Positions 9,844-50,465 of a DNA stretch of 62,920 bases are shown in pieces. The translations under genes and the position numbers were made by a program. The stretch is taken from positions 1 to 62,920 of the IMG/VR virus record IMGVR_UViG_3300037808_000193, one strand, 5' to 3'. Numbering within the stretch: position 1 is the stretch's first letter; every line of letters starts with the position of its first letter. Origin of the DNA: a virus (taxonomy: Duplodnaviria; Caudoviricetes). Under the pieces are notes generated by a model. That model made no database searches. It worked only from the letters and a program-made list of their open reading frames with translations, and was not told the DNA's origin.

Positions 9844-9880
9844 CTCCTCAACGGTTACCCGCTCATCTTATCCCAGAGAC

Positions 9881-24107: not shown

Positions 24108-24219
24108 CGGTCATCTCATTCACAACTCACCTCTCATGTCGTTGTGACCGTGAATTTACTACGTGTTCGAGCATGTGTCACAGATACGTAACAAATAGTT
24201 TGGGTGATGTAGTAACCTA

Positions 24220-24462
24220 GTGATCATGTCACCACCAGAAGAACCTGTACCCAATGACCTTTCGTCCCTACCTGATGCGGGACTACCTGGGGATATTCGG
24301 GAGTCAGTAGATGTCCTTGCCCGAAACTACTCACAAGCCATCACAGCCATGATGGAAGCAGGACTCAGCGAAGGTGCTGCCTGCTACATGGTTGCTGTCA
24401 CCTTTGGGAAGATTGGGGTGATCTTGCTGCCACCATCAGCCATTACGGAGAGGGAAGAGTGA
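24220..24462 (+). CDS. Hypothetical protein (small plus-strand island)
   Basis: ORF divergent from 24107 across an AT-rich gap. Confidence 0.55.
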   Translation: MIMSPPEEPVPNDLSSLPDAGLPGDIRESVDVLARNYSQAITAMMEAGLSEGAACYMVAVTFGKIGVILLPPSAITEREE

Positions 24463-24635
24463 TCCCGACCCCGAAACCCGTACCACCCAAGAAGCCATGG
24501 CTCTGTCGTCTCGGCCTTCACAAGATGAGATACACGAGAGACATGGAAGAAGGGAAGCTTCAGCTGTTCTCATGCGAGAGAGCTGGCTGCTTCGTTGGTG
24601 ACATTCACATCAACCGAGAATGGGAGAGACCATGA
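24459..24635 (+). CDS. Small Cys/His protein (58 aa, not in ORF track)
   Basis: GTGA-coupled; WLCRLGLHK...SCERAGC. Confidence 0.5.
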   Translation: MIPTPKPVPPKKPWLCRLGLHKMRYTRDMEEGKLQLFSCERAGCFVGDIHINREWERP

Positions 24636-24849
24636 GCCAAGAACGAAGGGATCTTCTCGTTCAACGAAAGCACGAACTCACCAGTGAGCTTGGTGAGCTA
24701 AACATGAAGTTCCCAGTACCGGCGTAGGCCCGATGGCTCACCCGAAAGTGAGTACATCGAATGATCAAACCCGACCATCAAGGCGAGCCATCCTCCACCG
24801 ACACTTGATGCACTTGTGGTCATGAGTACATTCATGGTCAGAACGTAAC

Positions 24850-24875
24850 AAGGACGGTCCCGAAGGACCGCCCCT
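24850..24875 (-). terminator. Terminator hairpin between convergent units
   Basis: AGGGGCGGTCC-TTCG-GGACCGTCCTT. Confidence 0.7.
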
Positions 24876-24947
24876 GCCAGTATTGCTTGGTTCTCTCATC
24901 TGCTCCGTCTCATCTGAGGAGTGATGAGGGTCCACCAGATGAGAGAA

Positions 24948-31128: not shown

Positions 31129-31660
31129 GTGATGTGGTCACTTTCATCGTTACCTTCCCACGGCCAGACTTGGCCGGGGACATATCTACAATCTTCTGGG
31201 TGAGTTCGTCGTCAGACAAGCGGAACATCTCACGAACCATCTTCAAGTCACCGAGGTCAAGCTCACAATCGGGGTCTTCATCACCACGGTTCATGTCATA
31301 ACCCAAGTCAGCGATCGTCTCGACTATCCGCACCCACAAGTGCTTCTTCTCTGGTGCCAGAGGGACACCTGCATCGACGCCTGACATGGCGTACTTCTGC
31401 ATGGCAGACCTCACCCTCTCTGCATTACGAGAGTCCTTGGCTCGTGACTTCACTGTCACCCGGCCACCCTCCATCGACATGCGAGTTTCGATGTTGGTCT
31501 GAGTCACAGCCAGAGACTCGAACAACTCCTGTGGGAAGTTGACGATGACCTCGTAGCCGAGAGTCTCTGGATCTTCCGAGATGGTTCCGGTCAGAATCGA
31601 CATGCACATCATGAAGAGTGAGTAGTCGCCCTGTCCGAGCCTCTGCCAGTCCTCAGCCAT
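31079..31660 (-). CDS. Hypothetical protein
   Basis: Coupled between dnaE and recA. Confidence 0.6.
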   Translation of the reverse strand: MAEDWQRLGQGDYSLFMMCMSILTGTISEDPETLGYEVIVNFPQELFESLAVTQTNIETRMSMEGGRVTVKSRAKDSRNAERVRSAMQKYAMSGVDAGVPLAPEKKHLWVRIVETIADLGYDMNRGDEDPDCELDLGDLKMVREMFRLSDDELTQKIVDMSPAKSGRGKVTMKVTTSHDDSQRADERDQQGAR

Positions 31661-34326
31661 CAGAGCCCCAGAGACCCGAGTGCCCCAGCATCTTGCAGCT
31701 TGAGTAGCACTCCGTTGAATTCACCATTGGCTGCATAATTCTTCCCTCCTGATACAGCTCTACTATCCGTATTGTTTATCAGATCATCAATGGTGTCGAA
31801 AGGTGCGTTGGTGAATATCTCACTAGCCGCCTTGATGCCAATCCCATCAATCGAGGACAGGCCCTTTCGGATTCCCCTCCTCTTCTTGTCGATGGTCCAC
31901 ACGTCACCAGAGATGTTGACATCGGGTGGCAGGATTCTGATCCCCAGCCTCCTCGCCTCCCTGACGTAGAGCTTCTCCTTCGGAGTGCCAGCTGTCGTCT
32001 CCAGCACTGCCGTCATGTACTCCAGCGGGTGGTGGGTCTTGAGGTAGGCAGCCTGGTAGCCCATCAATCCGTAGGCAGTGGCGTGAGCTTCGTTGAACCC
32101 GTAGTCGGCAAACCCTTTCATCTGATCCCAAACCCAATCTGCCTCTCGGCTACTCATGCCAGCAGCAACACAGTGAGCCTTGACAGCGCCACTGAACTCT
32201 CGGAACACACCATGGGACATCGTGAGCTGAGATCCCGACGCCTTCACTGCATCGAGGAACTTGTTCATCAGCTCGTAGCCCATGCCAAGATCCCGCAGGA
32301 TGTCCATGACTTGCTCCTGGTAGAGCACCACGCCCTGAGTCGTCTTCAGCGCCTTCTCGATACAGGGGTGAGGGTAGTCAGGGGGTGGGACACGCTTGAA
32401 TCGACGGTCGATGAACGTGTCGGTCTGGCCAGTCTTCATAGCTGCGGGCCTGAAGAGGGCCATGGCGTCGATGCAATCCTTCACCGTCCTCGGCTTGAGC
32501 TTCTTCGTTCCCCAAGCGTTGGCCTTGCCATCGAACTGGAAGATGCCGTTGTTCGGCTCCACCTTGCGGAGTGCCTTGAACGTCTCCTGGTCCTTGAGTG
32601 GAATCCACCCGAGACCATCGAGTGGGTCACGGTCGATCATCTCCAAGCACCGACGCATGGTGGTGAGTGTCCTCAGCCCGAGGAGGTCGAGCTTCACGAA
32701 GCCCAGCGCCTCCACTTCCTTCATCTCATACTGGGTGACGGTGTTCTTGCTCGATGGGATGAGCATGGTCGGCACGTAGTCAGAGATCGGTAGCCCTGGT
32801 GGCTCGATGATGAACCCGGCAGCGTGCGACCCTGGTGCCTTCGAGATGTCCAGGCCACCCAGACTCCTGATGATCAGCTGCTCGTCTTCCGGCAGATCGG
32901 AGATGGTGTCGACCCATCCGTACTTGGCCTTGAAGTCTTCTGGACCCATGTCCCGACGTTTGCGGGAGATGTACTGCACGAACAGTGACCCCCGGTCATA
33001 GTCATCGACACCCATGGAGTTGTAAGTGCCAATCTGACAGATGGTGTACTTGTCACTCAGGTAGTCAACGATGTCCTGACGGCGAGTGTCCTCTACGTCT
33101 ATGTCGATATCTGGTGGCTTGGTCCTGTCTTCGGTCATGAACCGATCGAACCCGACCTTCCATTCGATGGGGTCGATGTTGGTGATGTCGAGCATGTAGC
33201 AGACGAGTGACCCGTTGGCCGATCCTCGAATGTTGAGGAGGATGCCCTGCTTCCTGGCCCAGCGGCACACCTTGGCCACGAAGAGCAGGTAGTCAGCAAA
33301 CCCCGTCTTCTCGAACACCTCGATCTCGTGCTTGAGCCTCTTCATGTACTTCGACGGGATGCTGTCTGGCCACCACTCTGCAGCTGCCTTCCACAACAGG
33401 TTCTCCATCGACCTCTGCGGGTTCTTGGCCACGTGTGGCACTTGGAACCTGTAGTTGTCGATAGCTGGTATGGCCATCTTGTTCAGGTCGATGATGTCTC
33501 TGAAGGACGCCAGAGCTGCGTTGTAGACCCGCTGGGTCGTCCTGGTCTCGGCGTAGTGGTCCTTGATCCACTTCTGCTTGCACAGGTGATAGGCGTCACC
33601 AGGGAAGGCCGCATCGTCGTCTGGGTCCAGGCCATGGATGACCATCCTCTTCATTGCGTCGTGCAACGGGACCTGATCGAGGTGGCAGTAGTGAGAGTCG
33701 TTGGTGATGACCACTGGGATGCCGGTCTTGTTGGCGATCTCCCAAAGTGCCTCGGTGATGCTGACATCATCAGATGAACCATCCGGCTGGATGGTGTTGT
33801 GCATCTGAGTCTCGATGTAGGTGTGAGGGAACCTCTGGGCAAACCACTGGGCGATGCCTATGGCTCTCTGCTCACCATGGTTCAGCAGAGTCTGGATCAG
33901 AATCCCGAAGAAGCAACCTGTGGTGATAAGGACATCAGCACCACAACGCTGGGCAAGAATGTCCAGGTCGTCGAAGTCGATCCTTGGCTTCCGGTGGAAG
34001 GCTGATCTTTGGTGAGAGCGGGACGATAGCTCGACCAATCCCTTGTACCCGTCGAGGTTCAGAGCCAACACACCCATGTGGTAACGCTTGGCGTCCTTGT
34101 CGGCCTTGTCGTGGACGAGGTAGAACTCCTCGCCAGGGAAGGGCGCAAGGTTGTGTTTCTTGCTGGCCTTGTATAGCTCGATCGTTCCCGACATGTTCCC
34201 ATGGTCGGTGAGAGCTATCCCCGGCTGATTGTTACGTGCAGCAGTCTCGACCATCTCAGTCACTGAGCCCATGGCGTCTAGCGATGAGTAGTGGGAGTGT
34301 GCGTGCAGATGAAAGAACGAACCCAT
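31660..34326 (-). CDS. dnaE: Family C DNA polymerase (DnaE alpha; PHP, polymerase and HhH domains, no C-terminal OB)
   Basis: HLHAHSHYS.LD, TDHG, NDSHY, RGSANGS, PDIDID, HAAG, KLDLLGL, YQEQVM, YGFNEAHA. Confidence 0.96.
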   Translation of the reverse strand: MGSFFHLHAHSHYSSLDAMGSVTEMVETAARNNQPGIALTDHGNMSGTIELYKASKKHNLAPFPGEEFYLVHDKADKDAKRYHMGVLALNLDGYKGLVELSSRSHQRSAFHRKPRIDFDDLDILAQRCGADVLITTGCFFGILIQTLLNHGEQRAIGIAQWFAQRFPHTYIETQMHNTIQPDGSSDDVSITEALWEIANKTGIPVVITNDSHYCHLDQVPLHDAMKRMVIHGLDPDDDAAFPGDAYHLCKQKWIKDHYAETRTTQRVYNAALASFRDIIDLNKMAIPAIDNYRFQVPHVAKNPQRSMENLLWKAAAEWWPDSIPSKYMKRLKHEIEVFEKTGFADYLLFVAKVCRWARKQGILLNIRGSANGSLVCYMLDITNIDPIEWKVGFDRFMTEDRTKPPDIDIDVEDTRRQDIVDYLSDKYTICQIGTYNSMGVDDYDRGSLFVQYISRKRRDMGPEDFKAKYGWVDTISDLPEDEQLIIRSLGGLDISKAPGSHAAGFIIEPPGLPISDYVPTMLIPSSKNTVTQYEMKEVEALGFVKLDLLGLRTLTTMRRCLEMIDRDPLDGLGWIPLKDQETFKALRKVEPNNGIFQFDGKANAWGTKKLKPRTVKDCIDAMALFRPAAMKTGQTDTFIDRRFKRVPPPDYPHPCIEKALKTTQGVVLYQEQVMDILRDLGMGYELMNKFLDAVKASGSQLTMSHGVFREFSGAVKAHCVAAGMSSREADWVWDQMKGFADYGFNEAHATAYGLMGYQAAYLKTHHPLEYMTAVLETTAGTPKEKLYVREARRLGIRILPPDVNISGDVWTIDKKRRGIRKGLSSIDGIGIKAASEIFTNAPFDTIDDLINNTDSRAVSGGKNYAANGEFNGVLLKLQDAGALGSLGL

Positions 34327-34369
34327 ACGGACTCACCTCCGTTCTTAGTTTGCCACCTAGAAATGAGTG

Positions 34370-35658: not shown

Positions 35659-35723
35659 CCTAGCAACTCGGAGGTGAGTGGCTCCGAACTTGTCTCTCTA
35701 CTTATAGGAAGGATTGCTGTTAC

Positions 35724-36119: not shown

Positions 36120-36138
36120 CTGACTCACCTCACTTTCT

Positions 36139-37689: not shown

Positions 37690-37709
37690 TGTTCTCACCT
37701 CACTGTTGT

Positions 37710-38386: not shown

Positions 38387-40327
38387 TTAACCGGCCGTTG
38401 CGACGACGCTCCGCATTGCTCGAACAACCATGGCCTTGGTCATGGTCACAACGTCGTCGAAACTCTCGACGTTGCTAGCCACACTGCAGCCATGATCACC
38501 ATGAGACACAGCTCCGTTGATCCCGTACAGGGCAGTAGTCACGCCCGCACGGTTCATCGACTGGATCACTTCATCTCCTCGATTGCTGGCCCAGTGACCA
38601 TCGGTCACCGTGACCATCATCCGAATCGAATCTGAATCCCTCGACAGGAGCCAGTGTGCTGATTTGCTCAAGCAATCGCCTGGGTCAGTGCCTCCCCTCA
38701 TCTTGAAGGAGAGCATCTCACCAGACTTTGCTTTGTCACCCACGTCATAGACGATGAATGACTCGGTGTTGTAGGCGTACACCACACAGTCTCCGCCAAC
38801 CTGGTCGACGGAACGCTTCAGCAGCCAAGCAGCCCGAGCTACTTCACTCGACATCCCGGCCATCGACCCTGAGATATCCAGGGCAACCGCCATGTTGATA
38901 CGAGTTGCGTAGTCATTGTCTTGGAACGAGTCGAACGGTTCCCGAAGGAAGCGTTCGCCAGCTTCAGCTTGCATGATGCGTGAGATGTTGGGCCGACCGA
39001 GACGGTCAGGTTCCCAAGCACCCTCAGCCTGAACACGAAGGTCCCCGAAGACACGAACGATCTTCTTGGAAGCCATACGGTCATCGCCAGTAGCACTCAC
39101 TGGGGAGCCGTCGATCCTTTCGGTATCAACGCCCTTGCCCTGTGACATCACCTGTCGAATCGACTCAAAGATCTCATCGAGATGCTCACTGGCGACTTCA
39201 CTGTCCTGTGCCTCTGATTGAGCCTGGAAGAGTTCCGAGGTGATCTCGTCACTCGTCCAGTCGTTGACATCAGGACTATCACTCCCTGCCGACTCCCCAC
39301 CTGGGGTGTCGCTGGAAGATTCGTCTGTGTTATCCGAACCATGGTCATCACTGGCAGCCTCACCAGAGGTTTCCCCCTGGCCATCCTGCCCGACATCCCC
39401 ATCGTTGCTGTCCACTTGCTCTTGCTCTTCGTCGTTGTCGCCGTCCATGTCGTCATAGTCGACATCGTGGGACTCGATGTGTTGTGCGTCGGCATCTTGA
39501 CTATCTGCCTTCGCACCATCTCGACGCTGACGCCCCGTCTTCTCTGAATCGTCAGGACCACCCCTCTCGGGACGATCCGGCCAGTGACCAACTCCTGATG
39601 CTTGATCACCGTTCGCCATCCTCTCGGAGCCCGAAGGCATACCCGATTCGTTGGATGGCTTGGTGATGATCGTGTGGATACGATCCACAATCACTCTCAC
39701 ATCCGACTCGGAAGACGGAGTGAGTATCAGTCGTTGGTACTGCCTGACCAGAGATTCGATCTCGTCAGCGTGCCCACTTGGCTCGAACATGGCCTTCGCA
39801 CCGTCCCTCAGAGACTGAGGAAGGTAGTGACGGCCACACACGAGAAGCCACAGCCCGTCGTCCACGTTCTGGAGTCCGCCCCTGAGGTTAACCAGGAGGT
39901 CTGTCACCAGATTGGTAAAGAGGTCTTCAGCCACTTCGTAACGACTGACGAACAAACGCTCGATGCGTTGGTCCTCCAGAACGTTGAAGATGAACATCTT
40001 CAGCGTGTCGCCGAAGAAGCTGCCAGCCACCTTGTACCAAAGGTCAAAGGGTGTGTAGAGCACGTGTGCCACTTCGTGGTAGTTCACACCGATCAGGTTC
40101 CGAAGAAGTGATCGGGTGAGATCCGGTGGTGTCCCATCTGCTCGTCGCCCGTACTTGGTTACGTTGAAGGTGATAACACCACCATCGGTCCATGCAGGAG
40201 CATTCGCAAGATGAGCACTGTGTGGATGACCACGAGTGACTCTCAGCTTGGTATGTCCGGTGATGATCTGATCCGTCTTCTGAAGGACCCTCATCGCCGC
40301 ATCAAGCTTACGCTCAATACTTATCAT
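38387..40327 (-). CDS. vWA (MIDAS) protein with N-terminal HExxH zincin-like domain (CobT-like MoxR partner)
   Basis: AWTDG, YHEVAHV, FNVLEDQRIE, acidic linker, LDISGSM, GGT, VTDG. Confidence 0.88.
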   Translation of the reverse strand: MISIERKLDAAMRVLQKTDQIITGHTKLRVTRGHPHSAHLANAPAWTDGGVITFNVTKYGRRADGTPPDLTRSLLRNLIGVNYHEVAHVLYTPFDLWYKVAGSFFGDTLKMFIFNVLEDQRIERLFVSRYEVAEDLFTNLVTDLLVNLRGGLQNVDDGLWLLVCGRHYLPQSLRDGAKAMFEPSGHADEIESLVRQYQRLILTPSSESDVRVIVDRIHTIITKPSNESGMPSGSERMANGDQASGVGHWPDRPERGGPDDSEKTGRQRRDGAKADSQDADAQHIESHDVDYDDMDGDNDEEQEQVDSNDGDVGQDGQGETSGEAASDDHGSDNTDESSSDTPGGESAGSDSPDVNDWTSDEITSELFQAQSEAQDSEVASEHLDEIFESIRQVMSQGKGVDTERIDGSPVSATGDDRMASKKIVRVFGDLRVQAEGAWEPDRLGRPNISRIMQAEAGERFLREPFDSFQDNDYATRINMAVALDISGSMAGMSSEVARAAWLLKRSVDQVGGDCVVYAYNTESFIVYDVGDKAKSGEMLSFKMRGGTDPGDCLSKSAHWLLSRDSDSIRMMVTVTDGHWASNRGDEVIQSMNRAGVTTALYGINGAVSHGDHGCSVASNVESFDDVVTMTKAMVVRAMRSVVATAG

Positions 40328-40357
40328 GTTCTCACCTCTTGTTAGTTGCTAAACCAC

Positions 40358-40413
40358 CCTGCCTGAGAAGCAGGAGGAAGGGCACCCCTTCGCAGAGGGA
40401 TGCCCAACCTTCT
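40358..40413 (-). ncRNA. Conserved two-hairpin intercistronic RNA motif, copy 1
   Basis: AGAAGGTT-GGGCATCCCT-CTGCGA-AGGGGTGCCC-TTCCT-CCTGCT-TCTCA-GGCAGG. Confidence 0.8.
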
Positions 40414-40418
40414 ATCTC

Positions 40419-41303
40419 TCAGTCTTCGTACTCGACTCCGTACTCCCTTTCCAGGTCCGCACGGTTCAGGTCGAACACGTTCTTGACTGCCATCTTCTCG
40501 TCTGCAGAGAACGCATTGACGAAGTTGTCGATCGCACCGTCGAAGCTCACGGCTTGAGCAAGTTGCTCAAACTCCATGAGCTGATTCGTGGCCACGGGAG
40601 TTTCGATGTTCCCCTCGTTGTGCTGAGCCCTGATCTGTCGGGCAATTCGCAGCAACGTATTGGAGAACACCAGCTGCTCCTCGGTCACGTCGTCGTAGTC
40701 GAACGACATCTTCACGGCGAACCGATTCTTGAATGCGTAGTTCAGGGGCCTCGTACCCTCGTAGTCGGGGTTGTAATCGCCGATCACCAGCAGCTTGCTG
40801 TTGGCAATGATGATTTCACCACCGTTCTCCACGAGAGAGATGGTCCGACGTTTGTCAGTCAAGCCGAACATGGTCGCAGCCACCTTGGCAGGGAGGAAGT
40901 TCACCTCGTTGAGGAGGAGAACGCCACCGTGCCTCGCCAGCTTGGTCACAGGTCCGTCTTGCCAGACGTAGCCAGCACCAGTCTTCTTTGGTGCGTAGGT
41001 CCCGAACAGCATCGCCGGATCGGCAGCACCGTTGCATGGAACGCTGTAGACGGGGAAGTTGTTGCGTGCTGCGTAGGCGTATACCGCACTGGTCTTGCCA
41101 GTGCCGGTTGGGCCGTCGATCAACACGCTGTACCCGAGCCGATGGGCTTCGCCGAGGAACTCGAACTCACTCACACCAGATGACACTTCCCGACTGATGT
41201 AGTCGGTGTCGTACCAGCTGGGGGGAATGAGGTCCGCAACCTCTTTGTTCCAGGCCGGGGCCTTCTTCTTCGTCGCAGTCTTGGTTGTTGTAGCAGTAGC
41301 CAT
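40419..41303 (-). CDS. MoxR-family AAA+ ATPase (CbbQ/NirQ/CobS-like)
   Basis: GPTGTGKT, WQDGPVT, LLLNEVN, NPDYEGTRPLNYAFKNRF. Confidence 0.92.
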   Translation of the reverse strand: MATATTTKTATKKKAPAWNKEVADLIPPSWYDTDYISREVSSGVSEFEFLGEAHRLGYSVLIDGPTGTGKTSAVYAYAARNNFPVYSVPCNGAADPAMLFGTYAPKKTGAGYVWQDGPVTKLARHGGVLLLNEVNFLPAKVAATMFGLTDKRRTISLVENGGEIIIANSKLLVIGDYNPDYEGTRPLNYAFKNRFAVKMSFDYDDVTEEQLVFSNTLLRIARQIRAQHNEGNIETPVATNQLMEFEQLAQAVSFDGAIDNFVNAFSADEKMAVKNVFDLNRADLEREYGVEYED

Positions 41304-41433
41304 TTCTGTTCACCTCACGTTGAGTTGCGTAAGGAGGACAAGATGTAGCTAAACACCTCGCCCTCCACAGAAGACACCGAGCAAATTACAAGTTGCTAAG
41401 TGGTCATTAGATCAGTCGCAGCTGACTTTACAG

Positions 41434-41772
41434 TCAGGGTGTGACATCCATCATCGGTGGCCAGGATGCTTGTGAGGGTGTAGGGGCGTCTTCCGCCCCG
41501 GTGAGATCAGCTTCTGACCAGCATTCCCGGTATGCACACTGTGCAGCCCAGGTGATTGCCTTGTAGTAAGCCTTCGCCCAGTCACCCTCGTCATCCCACT
41601 TGAACGTCTTGATGATTGATGGTCGCCGACGGTTTCCCTGTCGGTCATGAGAGGGACCGTGACCAAACACGGTCACTTTGGAGGCTTCCGCATCGGGATC
41701 TTGCAATACCCGATAGGTGCATCCCATCCCTTCGATGGTTGCCATCGTCATCTCTTCGATCGTAAGCGTCAT
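41434..41772 (-). CDS. Hypothetical protein, first ORF of the early operon
   Basis: GGAG SD before MTLTIEEM; the longer track start runs into structured non-coding sequence. Confidence 0.55.
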   Translation of the reverse strand: MTLTIEEMTMATIEGMGCTYRVLQDPDAEASKVTVFGHGPSHDRQGNRRRPSIIKTFKWDDEGDWAKAYYKAITWAAQCAYRECWSEADLTGAEDAPTPSQASWPPMMDVTP

Positions 41773-41779
41773 GGTTACT

Positions 41780-42630
41780 CCGTTCCGCCCGATGTCCTCT
41801 GTGGAGGTGAGGTGAGAATTCTGTTCTGATCGGCATCGCCCGTCACATTGGGCTCGGACCGTATGGATTGCTAGGCACTTCAACAGCTTGGGAACCGCAT
41901 CTCCTGGTCTTCATCTACCTCCAAGAGCCCTTCCACAAACCTCTGTAATCCACAGACGACCATTCGCCACTTCAGAATACTGACTTTATGTCATCCTCTC
42001 ACTAGGTGAGATTCTGACCTCTCAGGCTGCACGTGCGTTCCTAGCTCATGCATCGCCCGAACGGTTACCTATCACTTTCACGGTGGGATACTTGCTCCCA
42101 TCGACAATTACTCGTGATCCCTTGCCATTGTCAGCGTGTCCGAAGGCTTGCTCTATCGCCTGCCGGTTGCTTCTCTGTTGATTGTCAAGATGCGTCTTAG
42201 TCAAGTCTGACCGACACCATCGAAGTAGCTAGGCTCCCGCCCCTCATAAGTGGGCTTTGCAAGATCACGAGACCGGACTACCAAGGGTCGATTCCGTAGG
42301 GTTCTAACCCCTACCTACCCTGCCGAATTACAGAATTCAGAACACTTGCCACTAGGGCCAACAGAGGTTTGATCCTCCGCCATGTTGTTCTCACGGCTTG
42401 TCACTCAGTCGTTCTCACTCTTGCCATGGCACGCATAGTCCAACGATCGGACCGTTCCTAGTTGTCCTAGCCCCGTAGCCGATTGATACGGGGCTAAGTC
42501 CCTGGTCATGCCTAGCGTTCGATTGTCAAGGTGCTAGATCCCTATTGGAACCCATTGGGAGCTGTCACCCAGACTCCCAGTCTGAGCCATCACTCCCGGC
42601 CCGAGTAGACCGAATCACCGACCTACTCAC
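41780..42630 (-). ncRNA. Candidate large structured RNA / leader (~850 nt)
   Basis: No credible ORF; many hairpins, most with G-U pairs favouring the minus strand; long-range helices; two boxA-like boxes; TGTGATAGTGT -10-like element just upstream. Confidence 0.6.
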
Positions 42631-42659
42631 CTAGGACACTATCACAGCTAGTGAGGTTG

Positions 42660-43060
42660 TAACAGGGACCCTAGGGGTCCCCTGTCGGCACCCTGGCACC
42701 CTGGCAGTAGGCCTAGGGTCACCACTAGCACAGAATCGATTCTAAGGCCTCTCAGAGCCGTTCTAAGGCCCTACTAGGATTCTGTGCTATGGGTATAGCC
42801 AAACACCCTGGCAAGCTCTTAGAGAGCCTCTCAGGCACCTCTCCTGGCAAGTGAGGTTTCTAGCACCTAGGCCACATTGACCAGCCCGACCCCTCACTGA
42901 GATCATATGAAAGGTCATGAGATAACCAAAGATTCCATTCTCACCTGTATCATGACTTTCCAGGTATTTCATGCAATTCTAGGGAGGATGTGATTCTGGC
43001 AGAAATTCAGCGACACTCAGCATTTCTGTTTTGGGCTTCTGAGGCAGAAATTCTCTCGTC
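42660..43060. repeat. Cluster of palindromes and short repeats (candidate origin or packaging/control site)
   Basis: ACAGGGACCC-TAG-GGGTCCCCTGT; GGCACCCT tandem; 12-bp inverted repeat 42726-42737/42778-42789 enclosing TTCTAAGGCC x2; GGCAGAAATTC x2. Confidence 0.5.
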
Positions 43061-43161
43061 GCTCAGTACTGGTGATCTCAGCTCGAAATGTGAGAAAGTT
43101 ACCTACCGCATCTTCAGATGATAGAGTGACAATTGCACCACCAGTAACTAGGAGAGAACTG

Positions 43162-43632
43162 ATGGCGGAAGAAGCAGTTGAGACAGTCAAGCTGGACCCT
43201 CTCACAGGGACCACCATTGGCACCCAGTCATGGGTCATCGCTACTGAGATGGCAGCTGGTGGAGAGGGCAAAGGGGAGGTGATCGACCGCATCAAGGCCA
43301 GAGTCCCCGAGACCACACGCTCAGGGACCCCCAACCCGATAGCTCAGAGAGTCAACACAGTGCTCACGCAGCTTCGCCAGAAGGGCTGGACCGTCGAGGA
43401 GTCATGGAAGCTCGTCCCTCCAGCAGAGGGAGAGGCACCCAAGCCCAAGGCACCAGCCAAGAAGCCTGCCAAGAAGGCGGCCTCCAAGACCAAGAAGGCT
43501 CCTGCCAAGAAGACAGCAGCAAAGCCCAAGGTCACTGAGAGGGCAGCGGTGACCAAGGAGGGCAAGGTCGTACCAACCAAGCCCAAGGTGACCGGGAAGC
43601 GTAAGATCGTGAAGAAGAAGGTGACTGCCTGA
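43162..43632 (+). CDS. Lys/Ala/Pro-rich DNA-binding-like protein
   Basis: AGGAG SD; helical N-terminal domain plus KKPAKK tail; the only sizeable plus-strand gene. Confidence 0.75.
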   Translation: MAEEAVETVKLDPLTGTTIGTQSWVIATEMAAGGEGKGEVIDRIKARVPETTRSGTPNPIAQRVNTVLTQLRQKGWTVEESWKLVPPAEGEAPKPKAPAKKPAKKAASKTKKAPAKKTAAKPKVTERAAVTKEGKVVPTKPKVTGKRKIVKKKVTA

Positions 43633-43658
43633 CCCGCCCTTGGGCAATCACTTTCTAG

Positions 43659-43688
43659 GAGGCCGGGGTGTGGAAGCCCCGGCCTTCT
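43659..43688. terminator. Hairpin terminator between convergent genes
   Basis: GAGGCCGGGG-TGTGGAAG-CCCCGGCCTT. Confidence 0.7.
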
Positions 43689-44552
43689 TCATGTGTATCG
43701 GTCCGCAAGAGCACGAAGCTTCTTGGGCTTCATCTCCCCAGGGTCCTTGGCTTTGACCCCATCCTTGCGTCGACCGAACATCTTCCCGTCTACCCGACGT
43801 AGGTTCAGAACGAACTGCTCGTGCTTCAGCCTGTCGTAGATAGCCGCCTCAGCCTCTTGCCCAGCTCTGTCGTTGTCGAGCATGAGGATGATGTCCGTAG
43901 CACCCATCCTCCGCAGCTCACCGACCTGATAGTCACTGATCCTCGAACCCAGGATGGCTACAGCACTCATGCCGAACTGGTCGAGCTTGATTGCGTCGAG
44001 TGACCCCTCACAGATGAAGATCGGCATGTCATACGACCTCCAAGCCCCGAACAGGATCTCGCTGATCTTCGAGCCCTTGGGGTACTTGTACCGGACCCTC
44101 ACGTCATGGTCGAGATACCGACGGATGATTCCCCTCAGCCTTCCCATGTGGTTCCTGTACGGGATGGTTACCGCATTCCTCATGGGGTCGTAGCCGAGAT
44201 CCCACTTCTCCACGATGTTGTTGTCGAACCCACGCTCTCCCCAGTAGGGATGCATCACGCTCTGGCGGTACTTCCTCAGCACGTGCTCAGGTAGAGCTTC
44301 TTCAGGCTCCAGAGACAACCGTTCAAGGATGCTCTTGCCCGACAACATCGAGGTTGCCTCTGGAGCCACACCTATAACGCCACCAAGGTGACCGCCCTTG
44401 CCACAAGCGTGGCAGTAGTACAGCCCCTTCTCGACGTTCACCCTCATAGAGGGATTCGTGTCCTCATGGAAGATGCAGAGGCAATCCCACTCATCACCAG
44501 ACTTAGATCTGATGTCGAGATTACTCTCCGCCCACTGCTCATATTCTCTCAT
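43689..44552 (-). CDS. dnaG: DnaG-like primase (CHC2 zinc finger and TOPRIM)
   Basis: LCIFHEDTNPS...YCHAC; ICEGSLDA; LDNDRAG; KDPGE. Confidence 0.9.
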   Translation of the reverse strand: MREYEQWAESNLDIRSKSGDEWDCLCIFHEDTNPSMRVNVEKGLYYCHACGKGGHLGGVIGVAPEATSMLSGKSILERLSLEPEEALPEHVLRKYRQSVMHPYWGERGFDNNIVEKWDLGYDPMRNAVTIPYRNHMGRLRGIIRRYLDHDVRVRYKYPKGSKISEILFGAWRSYDMPIFICEGSLDAIKLDQFGMSAVAILGSRISDYQVGELRRMGATDIILMLDNDRAGQEAEAAIYDRLKHEQFVLNLRRVDGKMFGRRKDGVKAKDPGEMKPKKLRALADRYT

Positions 44553-44564
44553 GAGATTATGGTA

Positions 44565-45884
44565 TCACCCCAGATTGATGACACCGGCTCCTTGAGTGAC
44601 GGTTCTTGGAACCCTGCCAATCCCACCATGGTTGACCGTCACAACAGGGTGACGGTCAGTAGACGATCCCTTGCACAGAACATCACCCGCAGGCCAGTTA
44701 CCGATGAACTCACACCCCGTCACAGTCACCCGTGGGAACTCACCAGCTGGAACAGTCTGGTAGACCCGCCCTGATCCGGCCATCACTGCTGCATTGACAA
44801 TCGGGTGATCGTGACGCTGATCCCCTGCATCGAAGGTGCATCCGACCACAGTGATCTGATCACTACCGACCACAGGATCAGACTTGGCGATCTCATTGAG
44901 AGAGCTGTTCCTCAACACCTTGACTGGAGTGTGCATCCCTGAGAAGTGACAATCTCTGATGTTGATGTTGCGGGCACCCCACTTGTGGATGACAACACCT
45001 TCACCACCCTGGCTTGTTGACCCAAGAGGTGCAGCACCTGGGTCACTCCAGCTGTAGGGATCGACGCTGTTCCTCGATGGGCCAATGACAGTGCAGTTCT
45101 GAATCACCCAGTTGTCGCCGCCCTTGATGTCAATGAAGTTCTCACCAATCCTCAAGTTGGGTCGACCGGCAATGGTGAACCTCTCACCCGTCCACTCTGC
45201 AGTGCAGTTCTCAATGACCACCCCGTCAGAGTTGTAGCTGTGGATGCAGTCCGCACCGATATCGAGGAAGTCACAGTGGTGGATGTGGATGTTCTTGACT
45301 CCACCACCCATCCAGAAGACCACGGTGTCCCTGTTGATGCTGGTGTGGATGAACCTGCTGCAGCGGACGTTGTAGATCTCGATGTCCTGGGCACCATGCA
45401 TCTGGACGAAGTAGCCAGTGGAGGCTCCCTTGTTCCCAATGTGCTCGATGTCCCTGATGACGACATGCCTGTCGTTCTTGCCCAGGTAGATCATCCCAGC
45501 GACCGTTGCACCTGGCTCGGCCATGATGGTGATCGGTTTGTCTGCTGTCCCCTGGATCGGAGGATGGTTGGCCGGGAGGATGGTGACGTGAGCCCGAGCT
45601 GGGTCAGGGTGAGCCTCCATCACATAGGTGTCCCCAGGCTGAGCCGCCGCCATAGCGCTGGCCAGGTTCTTCACTCCTGCCCGAACCATGATTGCGTCAT
45701 CTGGAACGACACCACCAATGGGGTCAGGGACACCATCTTCACCACTGCCATCATCCGGTGGTTCATCAGTCGGCGGGTCATCTACAGGAGGCACATCACC
45801 AACCTTCAGCCCTTCAGCAATGTTCCAGATGCTCTGGCTGTGAGCCTGGATAGCCGTCATTTCGTCTGTCAGTGACATCATCAC
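44565..45884 (-). CDS. Right-handed parallel beta-helix protein (pectate-lyase-like)
   Basis: LASAMAAAQPGDT, GTADKPITI, repeated I..C / DIK rungs (GADCIH, GENFIDIKGG). Confidence 0.8.
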   Translation of the reverse strand: MMMSLTDEMTAIQAHSQSIWNIAEGLKVGDVPPVDDPPTDEPPDDGSGEDGVPDPIGGVVPDDAIMVRAGVKNLASAMAAAQPGDTYVMEAHPDPARAHVTILPANHPPIQGTADKPITIMAEPGATVAGMIYLGKNDRHVVIRDIEHIGNKGASTGYFVQMHGAQDIEIYNVRCSRFIHTSINRDTVVFWMGGGVKNIHIHHCDFLDIGADCIHSYNSDGVVIENCTAEWTGERFTIAGRPNLRIGENFIDIKGGDNWVIQNCTVIGPSRNSVDPYSWSDPGAAPLGSTSQGGEGVVIHKWGARNINIRDCHFSGMHTPVKVLRNSSLNEIAKSDPVVGSDQITVVGCTFDAGDQRHDHPIVNAAVMAGSGRVYQTVPAGEFPRVTVTGCEFIGNWPAGDVLCKGSSTDRHPVVTVNHGGIGRVPRTVTQGAGVINLG

Positions 45885-46204
45885 TACTTCCGCTTGAGCT
45901 TGACCTTACGAGGTAACTTGATGTCACTACCATATCTCCTCAGCTGCTTTACTTCGTTCTTCCAGCGGAATGGGGTCATTGGCAAGCAGATGTTACAGAT
46001 CCGGTAGAACTTCCCGTGGTCACAAGGGATGCCGTTGCAATGGAGCTTCTCACAGCGGGAGTACTTCAACCGGCACAGCTCACACCGAGCTTCTCCCTTG
46101 GGTTCCGGCTTCTTGCGTGGCGGCTTCTCAGTCGCCTTCCATGCCTGGAGCTTCGGTCTCGTCTTCTGAGATGAGGATGAGGATTTCTTCTCCGTTGGAG
46201 CCAT
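45884..46204 (-). CDS. Basic Cys-rich protein
   Basis: CELC...C...HC...CDHG...CNIC. Confidence 0.55.
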   Translation of the reverse strand: MAPTEKKSSSSSQKTRPKLQAWKATEKPPRKKPEPKGEARCELCRLKYSRCEKLHCNGIPCDHGKFYRICNICLPMTPFRWKNEVKQLRRYGSDIKLPRKVKLKRK

Positions 46205-46526
46205 AGACCATCACCTCTCCCGTCCCGTAGCTAGTGAAGATCTCGATCATGCCGAGCTTAGTTTCCAAGAGGATCATCACATCATCGTCATCATCTGGCT
46301 CGATGGTGACAACAAGATCTCTGCTTTGGTACTCACCCCAGTAGTGGGCGATCGGAACCTCTCCATGGCGTGAAGAGTTGAGCTGTGCTGGCCAATCAGG
46401 CATCTGGGGTCTCCTTGGTACTGCTCCTGGTCGGCTCCGTATGGAGGCAGTCTTCATCCCCGGCATCGTGGTGAGCACACTCACAATTGGGAAAGACATC
46501 AGCTTCCAAGTTCCACCATGCAGCAC
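46128..46526 (-). CDS. Hypothetical protein (start uncertain, likely MPDWP)
   Basis: Acidic beta-rich ORF. Confidence 0.45.
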   Translation of the reverse strand: MLHGGTWKLMSFPIVSVLTTMPGMKTASIRSRPGAVPRRPQMPDWPAQLNSSRHGEVPIAHYWGEYQSRDLVVTIEPDDDDDVMILLETKLGMIEIFTSYGTGEVMVYGSNGEEILILISEDETEAPGMEGD

Positions 46527-46701
46527 CGAGCTTGGTGCTGATGTGGTCGATGCTCCGCTTCATGCCCTTGTGCCAGTTCATGTCGTTCCGGTCAGTGGTT
46601 GGGCAGTTGCTCATCTCCACACTGAACTTCTCACAGGCGATCATAAGAGCATCGTATTGTGATTCTGTCACTCGTAGAACGAGAGTCTTGGTCGTAGTCA
46701 T
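46396..46701 (-). CDS. Hypothetical protein
   Basis: Ribbon-helix-like N-terminus (LVLRVTESQYDAL). Confidence 0.5.
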   Translation of the reverse strand: MTTTKTLVLRVTESQYDALMIACEKFSVEMSNCPTTDRNDMNWHKGMKRSIDHISTKLGAAWWNLEADVFPNCECAHHDAGDEDCLHTEPTRSSTKETPDA

Positions 46702-46805
46702 ATCGTGTACTCGTCGTACACCTGGCTCTGCTCTTCCTCATCTTGGGTGAGAAAGTAAGCAGCAGCAAATGATCCTACGAAGACACCCGCTAAGAACTTG
46801 AACAT
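46698..46805 (-). CDS. Small membrane peptide (35 aa, not in ORF track)
   Basis: GAGGAGG SD; MFKFLAGVFVGSFAAAYFLTQDEEEQSQVYDEYTI. Confidence 0.6.
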   Translation of the reverse strand: MFKFLAGVFVGSFAAAYFLTQDEEEQSQVYDEYTI

Positions 46806-46832
46806 AGTTCCTCCTCACGAGTGATCTTATCA

Positions 46833-47252
46833 CTAATGAGGGTGGGGGTGACACTGCCACTGACGCCACGGGTTTCCGTGTTGGCCATCTCGTGCTGTGA
46901 CATCAGCGGCCAGCTCAATGGCAAGAACAGGGTCGTACCTGTTGGCAGAACGTGTTAGGGGTTCTGACCATCCCGACCTCTCAGCTTCCCGGTTCCAGGT
47001 ACCAGCGAGGAACTGGAAGATTCCTCCTGCTGTGCTGTCGGGGTTCTTGGCTGTCGACTTCCATGTGGACTCACACCCGACGACTATCGAGGCCTTCTCA
47101 GAATCAGTCGTCGCATGGTCATCGAACACGTACTCCAGGTATGGACGAATGTTGTTCTCACATTGATCGGGAGTACCACACTCGCTCCTCGCCACCATCA
47201 TCATCCACACCACTAGTAGCAGCTCTCCCACTCTTCTCTCCCTTGAAGTCAA
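46833..47252 (-). CDS. Lysozyme-fold lytic transglycosylase (SLT/Rpf-like)
   Basis: CES.W...A.N..STAGGIFQF...TW...W.QW.C. Confidence 0.82.
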   Translation of the reverse strand: MTSRERRVGELLLVVWMMMVARSECGTPDQCENNIRPYLEYVFDDHATTDSEKASIVVGCESTWKSTAKNPDSTAGGIFQFLAGTWNREAERSGWSEPLTRSANRYDPVLAIELAADVTARDGQHGNPWRQWQCHPHPH

Positions 47253-47748
47253 GGTCGATCAGCTGCATAGCGACGGCTAAAGCCTGCAATTGCACATAGG
47301 CAAACGTTCGGTACACGTCCTTATGTCCCTGGACGTGGATCGGCTGATGACCAGACCCAGAGAGTACAGCGTCCAACCCTGGAGATACATCCCCAGCGTG
47401 ACAACAGTCGAACCCGATCCACCACACGTTGGTCTCAGTCACGTCGATGACACCAGCAAAGGTGAGGCCGCCATGGCAATACACCTCATCCTCAATATAG
47501 GGGTAGCCAACTCCATATAGAGGATCACCTTCGGTGACACCTGCATACCCACACCAGTGACCAGTCACGTCATGGCGGAGAGCAAAGCACTTCATCGTCT
47601 TGCCCTGGTAGGTCATGTTCCAGAAGGCATAGTCAGGCTCGGTCATCCATGGGCCATCTGCCCAGGTGCTCTTGTCGATGTGCCTGTCTTGCCCCGAAAC
47701 TAGCCCGCTGATGGTGTCAGCCAGCTGCTCAATCGTCTCGGTCATCAT
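47158..47748 (-). CDS. Conserved phage hypothetical protein
   Basis: GHWCGY.GV...HGGLTF...WWIGFDCCHAGD...YRT..YV. Confidence 0.75.
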   Translation of the reverse strand: MMTETIEQLADTISGLVSGQDRHIDKSTWADGPWMTEPDYAFWNMTYQGKTMKCFALRHDVTGHWCGYAGVTEGDPLYGVGYPYIEDEVYCHGGLTFAGVIDVTETNVWWIGFDCCHAGDVSPGLDAVLSGSGHQPIHVQGHKDVYRTFAYVQLQALAVAMQLIDLDFKGEKSGRAATSGVDDDGGEERVWYSRSM

Positions 47749-49012
47749 CTTTGTCCTTCATGTCCTGAGCTTGGTCATACGTGATCTCGCTGAACTCACC
47801 ATCGTTGGGTAGGAACTTCGTCCAGAAGGTGATCCCATCACGTCCGTGCCGATACTTTGCCAGGTTCACCCGGTGAACAGAGCGGGAATACTGCTGCAGC
47901 ATGATCACGGCGTCAGCGTCTTGGCCGATCGAGTCTCCGTAGGCCAGATTCTCTACTCCTGGGATGTCACGCTTTCCTGCCCCGGCCCTGTTCAACTGAG
48001 CAGCTGTGACGATGGGGACCTGATAGCTCATCGCCAGAGTCTTCAGTTCACCCGAGAGTTTCTGCACTGCCCTCCAGTCGTCACCGATCATGGACATCAG
48101 CGTCATGTAGTCGATGAACACCACATCGGGCTTGTTGCGCTCGATGAGGCTGGCGATCTCTAATGGACCTACCTGGCCTCGACCACGGTCAGAAACATGG
48201 AGCCTGCCTGGGTAGTGACCCGGCACCTTCTTGAGCCAATCCCTATATGTAGAGGGACCAACATGACCAGTGGTGAGTTCCTGACTAGTGAACTTCAGGT
48301 GACCCGCTGCCTTGTGCATCTGGTTGCTCATCACGGTGTGAGCCCTGACGAGAATCTGTTCTCGTGGTTGCTCCAACGAACAGAACTGCACTGCGTACCC
48401 GGCTTTGACGGAAGCGACTGCCATGTTGACGAGAGCCCAGGTCTTGCCTTGCCCGAGACGAGCACCGACCACCCAGAGGTGGCCTGGCATGGGTCCACCA
48501 GTCCTTGCGTCGAGCGTGTCGTATCCGGTGGGTGTACCCGATGCCCCGTGCTCTTTGATCCTGGCAGCGAGGCCTCTGATGTACCGATAGGCAGCATCGA
48601 AGTCGGCTATGGCGTCATGATCACCATCGGCTCCATCCAGCTCTGTTCTCAGCCCGACGATGCCGAGGTGAAGCTCACGCAGAACCTCATCGACCATGCC
48701 CCTGTCCTCGATGCCCTCTACACCCCGTTCAAGGAGCCGCTTGAGCACGAACTGGGAGTGCTGGGCATGGACCTCTTCTACTAGGGGCTTGGCCTCTCCT
48801 GCGTCGGTTCTCAGGATCTTGAAGTCTGGGAAGCGGGACTTGAAAGAGTTCTGGCCTGGAGACTTTGCGTACTTGGTGACGAACCTCTCAATCCACACCC
48901 ACTCTTTCTTGTGGATGTGGAAGTGGTTCGAGTTCACCCCATGCTTTGCTGCAGTCCGGTAGTCACGATGCTTGACCACATAGCTGATCAGCACCGATTC
49001 TGGATTCGCCAT
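47729..49012 (-). CDS. dnaB: DnaB-like replicative helicase
   Basis: PTGY..LD..TGG, GARLGQGKT, SLEQ, FIDY, AAQLNR, IGQDAD, KYRHG. Confidence 0.93.
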   Translation of the reverse strand: MANPESVLISYVVKHRDYRTAAKHGVNSNHFHIHKKEWVWIERFVTKYAKSPGQNSFKSRFPDFKILRTDAGEAKPLVEEVHAQHSQFVLKRLLERGVEGIEDRGMVDEVLRELHLGIVGLRTELDGADGDHDAIADFDAAYRYIRGLAARIKEHGASGTPTGYDTLDARTGGPMPGHLWVVGARLGQGKTWALVNMAVASVKAGYAVQFCSLEQPREQILVRAHTVMSNQMHKAAGHLKFTSQELTTGHVGPSTYRDWLKKVPGHYPGRLHVSDRGRGQVGPLEIASLIERNKPDVVFIDYMTLMSMIGDDWRAVQKLSGELKTLAMSYQVPIVTAAQLNRAGAGKRDIPGVENLAYGDSIGQDADAVIMLQQYSRSVHRVNLAKYRHGRDGITFWTKFLPNDGEFSEITYDQAQDMKDKDDDRDD

Positions 49013-49060
49013 CTACTTATCACCTCACGTGTTGTAATCATCAAGGTATCCCAGAAAGGA

Positions 49061-49112
49061 AGAAGGTGCCAGGACCCCTCTCCCCCGACGGGATGAAGTC
49101 CTGACACCTTCT
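49061..49112 (-). terminator. Long hairpin ending the late (structural) transcript
   Basis: AGAAGGTGTCAGGAC...GTCCTGGCACCTTCT followed by TCCTTTCT. Confidence 0.6.
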
Positions 49113-49168
49113 CGCAGTCAAACGTGAGGTGAGTCACTGCTTGATCTACATCATAGGTGATTACAACA

Positions 49169-49501
49169 TCAGATGTCTATCACCGTGCAAGGCCCGTAGG
49201 CGATGGTGTTCGTGAGACCTCCGATGGTCACACGCAATCGGTACCAGTAGATGCCGGGTACCGGGATGTCTGAGTTCGACACGCTGACGATGCATACCCC
49301 ATCGGTGTCGTCACCCGAGACAGAACCTGCCTGGCTGAACTGCAAGTTCTCGTCGCTGTTGTTGTCGTAGACGTAGAGGGTGATGTTTGTCTGGCCGGTG
49401 AAGTCGTACTTGCCACGGGTCCCATCAGCCAGCTTGCGTCGGACGGTGAATGACAGCTGCGGGTCATCACCATGCTGTAGCTCGATCGGGTGACGGCTCA
49501 T
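49169..49501 (-). CDS. BppU-like Ig-fold structural protein
   Basis: GDD..L.FTV...DFTG...G.C.V...D...PG.Y.Y.L.VT. Confidence 0.65.
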   Translation of the reverse strand: MSRHPIELQHGDDPQLSFTVRRKLADGTRGKYDFTGQTNITLYVYDNNSDENLQFSQAGSVSGDDTDGVCIVSVSNSDIPVPGIYWYRLRVTIGGLTNTIAYGPCTVIDI

Positions 49502-49632
49502 TGGCAGGATTCACATCCCTCTGGGTTCTCCAGATCACAGGCTTCGTAGTCGACCTCGATCGGCTCGTCCTCTTCAGCCATCCATTCATCAAGATCGTCA
49601 AGATCCTGCTCGCCCACGTTGATCAAGCTCAC
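49498..49632 (-). CDS. 44-aa acidic peptide ending ACDLENPEGCESCQ (not in ORF track)
   Basis: GTGA/ATGA-coupled on both sides. Confidence 0.75.
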   Translation of the reverse strand: MSLINVGEQDLDDLDEWMAEEDEPIEVDYEACDLENPEGCESCQ

Positions 49633-50333
49633 GTTGTCCTCTTCCCTACCTTCACCCCGATGGTGACCAGGATGACTCCTGCTGACGCCAAGAGTAGTGC
49701 CAGGTATGCAATGGCAGTGGAGCTACTCCCGGTGCAAGCCAAGCCGCCAGGAGGGCACTCATCCTCTGGAGGAGTCGGGATGGTGGTCGTCACCACAGGA
49801 GTAGAGGTGGTGGTGTCGATGTGAGGCCTGGTCGTGGTGGTGATGACGGGAACAGTGGTAGTGGTGCTCGGCGGGGAGCCTGTGCAACCAACGACCGTCA
49901 CCATGGCCAAGACACTGTTGGCTGAGTCAGCAGGGGTATTGCCATGGACAACACGCCACTGGGTCTTCGAGCCCCGTTCGTAGGTACCGAGCGGGATGTC
50001 GATCAGCTCGATCACATCATCGGGAAGATCGGGAGACAGTGCAGTCACTGTCCCATCGTCGAACTCCACGTAGACGTTCTCCCCGGCCTGGATCTTGTCA
50101 GTCGGGTGAGACTCGTAGTCAGCGAGGTGAGTGACGGTGACGATGAACTCATCACCAACGGGGACACTGACCCAAGCAGTAGGTCCATCCCCGGCAACGA
50201 AACGGGCCGACTGAACGGAAGTCGTCTCACAGTAGGGAGCAAAGTAGTCGGGGTCTTCTTGAGCCCCCGCTTCATTGGTCATGCCTACGAGTAGTGAGCA
50301 GATCACCATCGTGACAATGATTCGGAATTTCAT
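49629..50333 (-). CDS. Secreted cell-surface protein with an LAxTG-type sorting signal
   Basis: Signal peptide (AGA-QE), Thr/Pro stalk, LACTG, TM helix and basic tail. Confidence 0.8.
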   Translation of the reverse strand: MKFRIIVTMVICSLLVGMTNEAGAQEDPDYFAPYCETTSVQSARFVAGDGPTAWVSVPVGDEFIVTVTHLADYESHPTDKIQAGENVYVEFDDGTVTALSPDLPDDVIELIDIPLGTYERGSKTQWRVVHGNTPADSANSVLAMVTVVGCTGSPPSTTTTVPVITTTTRPHIDTTTSTPVVTTTIPTPPEDECPPGGLACTGSSSTAIAYLALLLASAGVILVTIGVKVGKRTT

Positions 50334-50465
50334 CTCGCCTCCACGGCCAGGTAATAGGTATGACTTATTACCTTATCACCTTTTGAAATTATGAAAATCC
50401 CTACTAGTTACCTAATCAGCTACTACCAGATACCTCCGGTATCTAGTACTACCTGACATGGCCTG

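Follow-up and report, generated by a model that had tools for sequence, protein, structure and literature searches.

In the genome of an uncultured marine phage, an anti-RBS feature that is real and non-random occupies the gap ahead of the gene for the replicative helicase: the 21 nt covering the dnaB SD (arms A' and B', one contiguous stretch that is present as a single copy in the genome) have their reverse complement upstream in two pieces (arms A and B), set in swapped order, and the two resulting inverted repeats flank a strong hairpin (T2). On the strength of predicted RNA folding, we tentatively take this gap to be a terminator/promoter junction in which B (plus A in read-through RNA) would close the dnaB ribosome site in cis, a reading that we consider possible while giving it somewhat less than an even chance. 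All of the evidence comes from in silico analysis of one genome, a complete contig of 62,920 bp that was analysed over its whole length (the window) and that recurs among seawater metagenome runs.

Gene order and elements of the dnaB upstream gap

The genome has a G+C content of 56% and carries every credible gene on the minus strand, where dnaB (49012-47729) stands first in a replication block that also includes genes for a primase, a MoxR-type AAA_5 ATPase, a DNA polymerase, RecA, a RuvC-like protein and a ParB-nuclease; an SLT-domain protein and a beta-helix protein are likewise encoded within the block after dnaB. The replication block is followed by portal, head-morphogenesis and tape-measure genes, after which the gene order passes round to a tail-fibre-like gene (62871-60796) and then to a 1703-aa protein and two ORFs of 234 and 110 aa, the latter of which ends at 49169 (GC3 0.77; no Pfam match). 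The site considered here is the 156-nt gap between this last ORF and dnaB. Judging by gene order, the tail-side genes are presumed to be late and the dnaB/replication genes to be early. The dnaB start codon (ATG 49012) is backed by a conserved N-terminus, in which E5, L8, I9 and S10 are nearly invariant in the alignment. The minimum of the cumulative GC skew falls at 48-50 kb, and beyond 50 kb the curve stays flat or climbs as far as the window's end; since all genes lie on one strand, this skew is confounded by transcription and may reflect gene content, not replication.

Read along the minus strand, the gap and its margins present a promoter-like site, a stop codon, arm A, arm B, hairpin T2, a pyrimidine-rich tail, A' and B' in that order. 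The elements, together with the genes referred to below, are:

49169 to 49501, minus strand: final gene of the presumed late, tail-side block; 110 aa, taken from the ORF list, with stop codon TGA at 49171-49169
49150 to 49179, minus strand: sigma70-like promoter match TAGACA-18-TATGAT, 10/12 (shuffles mean 0.4)
49158 to 49168, minus strand: arm A, TGTTGTAATCA, directly 3' of the stop codon and within the promoter spacer; complements A' (11 nt, 100%)
49121 to 49136, minus strand: arm B, the anti-RBS element, with its core TCACCTCACGT at 49132-49122
49061 to 49112, minus strand: hairpin T2, an 18-bp outer stem (G-U pairs included) plus a 4-bp inner stem
49047 to 49060, minus strand: pyrimidine-rich tail TCCTTTCT running into TCTGGGATA
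49030 to 49040, minus strand: arm A', TGATTACAACA, the standby region immediately 5' of the dnaB SD
49020 to 49030, minus strand: arm B', ACGTGAGGTGA, the dnaB RBS, with the SD core GAGGTGA at 49026-49020, 7 nt before the ATG
47729 to 49012, minus strand: dnaB-like replicative helicase, 427 aa (Pfam DnaB_C, 1.3e-28)
43689 to 44552 (44552-43689), minus strand: primase, replication block
40419 to 41303 (41303-40419), minus strand: MoxR-type AAA_5 ATPase gene, replication block
31660 to 34326 (34326-31660), minus strand: DNA polymerase, replication block

Arm A is unique in the genome (among the 31 matches found, the 29 others each carry 2 mismatches), and the core of arm B (49132-49122) matches the reverse complement of the dnaB RBS (49030-49020) at all 11 nt, with 91 nt between the arms. 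With the two upstream pieces having changed places, helices A:A' and B:B' cross instead of nesting, and we infer that they could form together only as a pseudoknot-like stack, for which the 25-nt linker between A and B would be long enough. A preliminary description of this DNA, made from the letters before the present analysis, had already picked out most of these parts, and they are borne out here: the minus-strand string at 49140-49113 is present as quoted, ahead of the hairpin at 49112-49061; the 11-nt match claimed to the neighbouring dnaB RBS (49020-49030) is the perfect complement of 49132-49122 given above; the interleaving 11-bp inverted repeat (49030-49040/49158-49168) is likewise perfect and does cross the first repeat; and the TAGACA-18-TATGAT match reported upstream was recovered at 49179-49150.

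Hairpin, promoter match and predicted folding of the putative leader

Hairpin T2 contains the longest uninterrupted stem found genome-wide (19 pairs, the next being 15), and its 70-nt window has the lowest folding energy among the windows listed (-42.7 kcal/mol). It is a stable GC-rich stem-loop directly after the last tail-side gene, with a stem of the kind expected of intrinsic terminators, and was not called in our terminator scan, which allows loops of 3-8 only. In bacteria, intrinsic terminators and 3'-UTR-derived sRNAs place a GC-rich hairpin and a pyrimidine tail at the operon end, with the seed immediately 5'. The present arrangement resembles the latter RNAs in having T2 and its tail at an operon end and B as a seed just 5' of the terminator, and it differs from typical intrinsic terminators in the weakness of its U-tract (the pyrimidine-rich UCCUUUCU holds 5 U in 8 and is interrupted by C). 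T2 is likely a partial terminator and a 3'-end stabiliser. The genome holds a second, canonical-looking terminator-like hairpin, T1 (9911-9886), with a similar C-interrupted tail. The 9-mer TCTGGGATA has only two perfect genome copies (9869-9877 and 49047-49055, minus strand), which lie a few bases past T1 and T2, respectively; both are then followed by GATGA and may represent a shared post-terminator signal.

The match at 49179-49150 is the sole promoter-like site in 48800-49400 and the best of 9 minus-strand promoter matches genome-wide, 6 of which fall at intergenic segments (9.5% of the genome); from its position we infer a transcription start near 49143. As no promoter-like site lies between T2 and the dnaB SD, the dnaB message must begin upstream of B and T2 or arise by read-through. 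Two other roles for the region were considered and rejected: a structural antiterminator (pairing between B and the T2 5'-arm extends over only ~5 bp, as against the 18-bp stem) and a leader peptide (a 49-aa ORF starts at GTG 49137 without an SD, 13 nt from the -10 hexamer, which is too far for leaderless initiation).

Folds of this region are more stable than those of shuffled sequences (z -5.45 for 181 nt and z -4.86 for 144 nt, with 0/200 shuffles as stable in each case). In a leader running from ~49143 into dnaB, the probability of being unpaired is 0.02 for B and 0.03 for the SD core, meaning that anti-SD:SD pairing dominates the predicted ensemble, on the premise (suggested by the promoter match) that the two arms share a transcript. 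The SD core is more open (0.32) in an RNA that begins after T2. In read-through RNA, nested folding prefers A:A' (0.03) and leaves the SD partly closed (0.29). The suggestion, made in the preliminary description, that a cis structure hides the dnaB SD is therefore upheld in silico for the promoter-derived leader (unpaired probabilities of 0.02-0.03 and folds more stable than shuffles), and holds less well for the read-through RNA, whose nested fold leaves the SD partly open. The SD region of dnaB was only 12th lowest of 67 genes in a naive scan for accessibility, a caution against reading too much into the occlusion.

Under the cis reading, T2 would end the transcripts of the tail-side block, probably only in part, and the host-type promoter overlapping the last stop codon would start the dnaB message upstream of T2. 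In the ensuing ~130-nt leader, the 11-nt element B would fold back across T2 onto the dnaB SD, and in read-through transcripts arm A would also pair with the 11 nt that immediately precede the SD; the dnaB ribosome landing site of 21 nt would thereby be sequestered in cis and translation of the helicase throttled. RNase III-type cleavage of the long duplex is a candidate for the relief of such a block. The promoter-derived leader does not explain arm A, since this arm lies upstream of the putative start. Furthermore, a promoter, a terminator-like hairpin and a closed SD would place a double lock on a gene that is needed early, which is awkward unless the lock is opened.

Systems with comparable logic are known. 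In the icaR mRNA of Staphylococcus aureus, pairing between the 5'UTR and the 3'UTR brings a pyrimidine-rich anti-SD motif onto the SD, which blocks initiation and creates a double-stranded RNase III substrate (PMC3868564). The two cases are alike in that a short anti-SD motif in an untranslated region complements the SD of the message, and they differ in placement: the icaR motif resides in the 3' UTR of its own gene, whereas here it lies upstream, in a dnaB 5' leader that doubles as the 3' UTR of the operon before it. Also unlike icaR, the present feature consists of two split 11-nt segments flanking a terminator hairpin and is known from sequence alone. In phage T4, the RBS hairpin of the lysozyme gene e is closed or open according to the transcript start site; in an arrangement of this type, closure of the SD depends on the promoter used, the internal start being downstream of one of the two arms that make up the closing helix. 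Arm A is similarly placed upstream of the putative start near 49143; unlike in gene e, however, the shorter transcript here keeps a second closing arm (B), and promoter choice alone would thus not open the dnaB SD.

Chance expectation, distant relatives and DNA-level explanations

Perfect inverted repeats of at least 11 nt within 250 nt number 9 in the genome, as compared to a mean of 4.19 in 300 first-order genome shuffles (at least 9 were obtained in 9/300), whereas paired repeats with abutting arms occurred in only 5/300 shuffles, and here the shared arm also falls on an RBS. The match of arm B has to be read with the caveat that 7 of its 11 nt correspond to the generic strong SD GAGGTGA, which has 43 genome copies.

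The frequency of lone 11-nt repeats lends some weight to a different explanation, namely that no RNA-level regulation takes place and that the gap is a terminator plus a promoter, the repeats being DNA-level sites (operator-like or belonging to a replication origin beside dnaB) or neutral products of mutation of the RBS region by template switching or inverted duplication. Arm A does lie between the -35 and -10 hexamers, the classic position of an operator, and a short palindrome (ACATC-T-GATGT) overlaps the -35 hexamer; the cumulative GC skew minimum at 48-50 kb and the missing anti-RBS element in distant relatives (see below) point the same way. We nevertheless judge this explanation to be rather unlikely, for two non-palindromic arms that are 11/11 identical to their complements and jointly cover exactly the RBS are a better fit to base pairing than to protein sites; neither arm recurs as members of an operator family would, a repeat search found no iterons, and the skew carries the confounding by transcription noted above. 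A replication origin at the gap was rejected on similar grounds (its only hints are the GC-skew minimum and the AT-rich arms, and iterons are lacking), as was a MITE-like insertion bounded by A and A', of which no other copies were found and in whose flanks no target-site duplication was seen.

In order to follow the feature among distant relatives, 68 of 80 IMG/VR loci were used, which yielded 54 distinct dnaB upstream regions; the other 12 loci were excluded beforehand because the match lacked its N-terminal end or lay too close to where the locus begins, and further regions were dropped when fewer than 275 nt were available upstream or when the 100 nt upstream were the same as in another region. 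Among these 54 regions (relatives with at most 45% DnaB identity), the longest perfect anti-RBS complement measured 8 nt; with no comparable complement in any of them, the anti-RBS element is not conserved at this level of identity. A hairpin of -30 kcal/mol or stronger precedes dnaB in 6/54 of the regions, which indicates that an operon boundary ahead of dnaB is recurrent while the anti-RBS element is not. When no contiguity was required, the RNAduplex energy between the dnaB RBS and its upstream sequence (-22.7 kcal/mol) was unremarkable, 11/54 relatives being stronger.

Closer relatives were sought by megablast against phage records and by DnaB peptide scans of IMG/VR and JGI metagenomes, none of which returned any, and the exact anti-RBS-gap-RBS pattern had 0 matches in IMG/VR. 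The best full-length DnaB identity was 45% in IMG/VR and 38% in cultured phages (Gordonia phage GMA6), and a protein search retrieved two DnaB proteins, 69% identical, solely in Logan assemblies. Four seawater runs mapped over 40300-50400 revealed, at low depth, one variant (45056) and none across the junction; the low word shares of these runs reflect low coverage, not divergence. Searched against Rfam, the whole genome gave 0 matches at the gathering score, and at E up to 10 the matches in 48900-49300 were no better than chance.

Complementarity to the ribosome sites of the replication block

Arm B complements other ribosome sites besides that of dnaB. Seven genes of the replication block share an extended SD, A(C/A)G(T)GAGGTGA(G), which in four cases forms part of a repeated intergenic module, and the 11-mer identical to the dnaB RBS also forms the MoxR RBS (41320-41310). 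The sites concerned are:

36121 to 36133, minus strand: RBS of the DUF6283 gene (ATG 36116), complementary to B over 13 nt without a mismatch, the longest such match genome-wide
41310 to 41321, minus strand: RBS of the MoxR-type AAA_5 ATPase gene, a 12-nt perfect complement of B (49132-49121)
49020 to 49030, minus strand: dnaB RBS, an 11-nt complement of B
37694 to 37703 (37703-37694), minus strand: RBS, a 10-nt complement of the B region
34330 to 34339 (34339-34330), minus strand: polymerase RBS, a 10-nt complement of the B region
41807 to 41816, minus strand: second non-coding copy of the B core, CTCACCTCAC, with an anti-SD-like tract CTCACCTCACCTCC, 35 nt before ATG 41772 and ~490 nt before the MoxR RBS

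The start of the DUF6283 gene is most likely ATG 36116, behind the module SD, and probably not the longest-ORF ATG 36188 or GTG 36128. The intergenic module occurs in four copies on the minus strand (40416-40325, 37772-37687, 37112-37025 and 36198-36114), each with the order stop codon, AGATGGTT, hairpin, TTCCACCTGC-loop-GCAGG, A-rich spacer, extended SD (G)TGAGGTGAG and ATG. The first three stem positions of the module hairpin co-vary among copies (GGG/CCC, GCT/AGC, CCC/GGG), in support of a hairpin under selection as RNA or DNA; the modules may be sites of processing or stabilisation between early genes. Two ORF-poor stretches (41773-43016, ~1.2 kb, and 24108-24947, ~0.8 kb) contain several strong hairpins and repeated CTTGACAATC motifs (in the 42530 and 42190 regions); they gave no tRNA or Rfam match and may harbour non-coding RNAs, promoters, an origin or the packaging site. 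Another anti-SD-like tract, ACTCACCTCC, lies at 35671-35679 in a small hairpin, ~20 nt before a terminator-like hairpin at 35653-35624.

These complementarities raise the possibility that B acts in trans, i.e. that a ~91-nt transcript running from the promoter to T2, or a fragment of the late-message 3' UTR, exposes B and lowers the translation of replication genes late in infection. The succession of promoter, seed, strong hairpin and pyrimidine tail is the layout of a small RNA gene, both A and B lie within the 3' UTR of the upstream block, and B is roughly half open (P unpaired 0.47-0.55) both in the short RNA (49143-49053) and in the isolated 3' UTR, with CUCACC in a 6-nt loop. Moreover, when complements of the B region elsewhere in the genome are ordered by length, the first five (13, 12, 11, 10 and 10 nt) are all RBSs of the replication block, and GTGAGGTGA has 8 genome copies as compared to 1.37 expected: 4 serve as SD and 4 stand in anti-orientation, one of the latter being the second non-coding copy (41816-41807), upstream of the MoxR-containing operon. 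Against this, any strong SD scores well when 7 of the 11 nt are a generic SD complement, and with seven RBSs this alike, chance can account for the additional nucleotides matched at MoxR (1 nt) and DUF6283 (2 nt). A host-type promoter would, in addition, make the RNA early and not late, the tail holds just 5 U in 8, arm A targets nothing besides dnaB, and the RNA is without an Rfam family. We regard action in trans as unlikely.

The preliminary description had proposed a ~95-nt sRNA or 3'-UTR fragment with a seed specific for dnaB and the MoxR gene. The match to the latter's RBS (41308-41329) does exist, with 12 nt perfect, then 4 mismatches and then 4 matches; the specificity does not hold, as the seed complements an SD common to seven genes and finds its longest match (13 nt) at DUF6283. 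The target ranking that had been proposed as a check, run by duplex energy over 68 start regions, likewise failed to single the two genes out (MoxR 6th, dnaB 13th), the energy ranking of duplexes being non-discriminating in this GC-rich genome. The mirroring of an RBS class by B would suit a global trans regulator, yet, with 7 of the 11 nt generic to the SD, it is also the trivial outcome of mirroring the dnaB SD.

The resemblance between the reverse complement of B and the consensus early RBS of this phage also allows B to be read as a true plus-strand RBS, serving a tiny antisense ORF (GTG 49129 or TTG 49141, 24-28 aa), the TTG lying 8 nt after the RBS-like sequence. Such an ORF would have very few codons and run antisense to the end of a well-supported gene, in a genome whose other genes are all on the minus strand, and the plus strand is without a promoter-like site in 48800-49400; we hold this to be highly improbable.

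Among phage RNAs, the c4 antisense RNA of P1 and P7 recognises its target through two short, separate segments (a'/b'). It is encoded upstream in the same operon and acts at the RBS of the downstream gene (PMC8198154, citing Citron & Schuster 1990). The likeness lies in a phage RNA located upstream in the operon facing a downstream RBS site, and in the use of two segments. The c4 RNA differs from the present case in being processed and structured; neither such a fold nor a processing signal is evident here, nor did we see an immunity or antirepressor context, or a match to an Rfam family.

The trans interpretation has a far-reaching form, in which all late messages would end in a 3' UTR mimicking the ribosome tail, plus a few bases that lend specificity (perhaps joined by the ~91-nt RNA), that pairs in trans with the SDs of the replication block and makes up an RNA-only early-to-late switch; we think it improbable that such a switch exists. 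Within it, dnaB would be bound by two segments and MoxR, DUF6283, the polymerase and others by one. With a switch of this kind, early protein synthesis would be turned off by the very increase in late transcription, and were the trans interpretation true, it would provide a simple RNA mechanism for the temporal shut-off of early genes in phages without obvious transcription regulators. Returning to occlusion in cis, which we favour, the pairing between the split arms and the dnaB ribosome site would, if it works, be a compact case in which a phage adjusts the amount of its replicative helicase by RNA folding at an operon junction, a single hairpin acting at once as terminator, stabiliser and scaffold for the occlusion of the SD.
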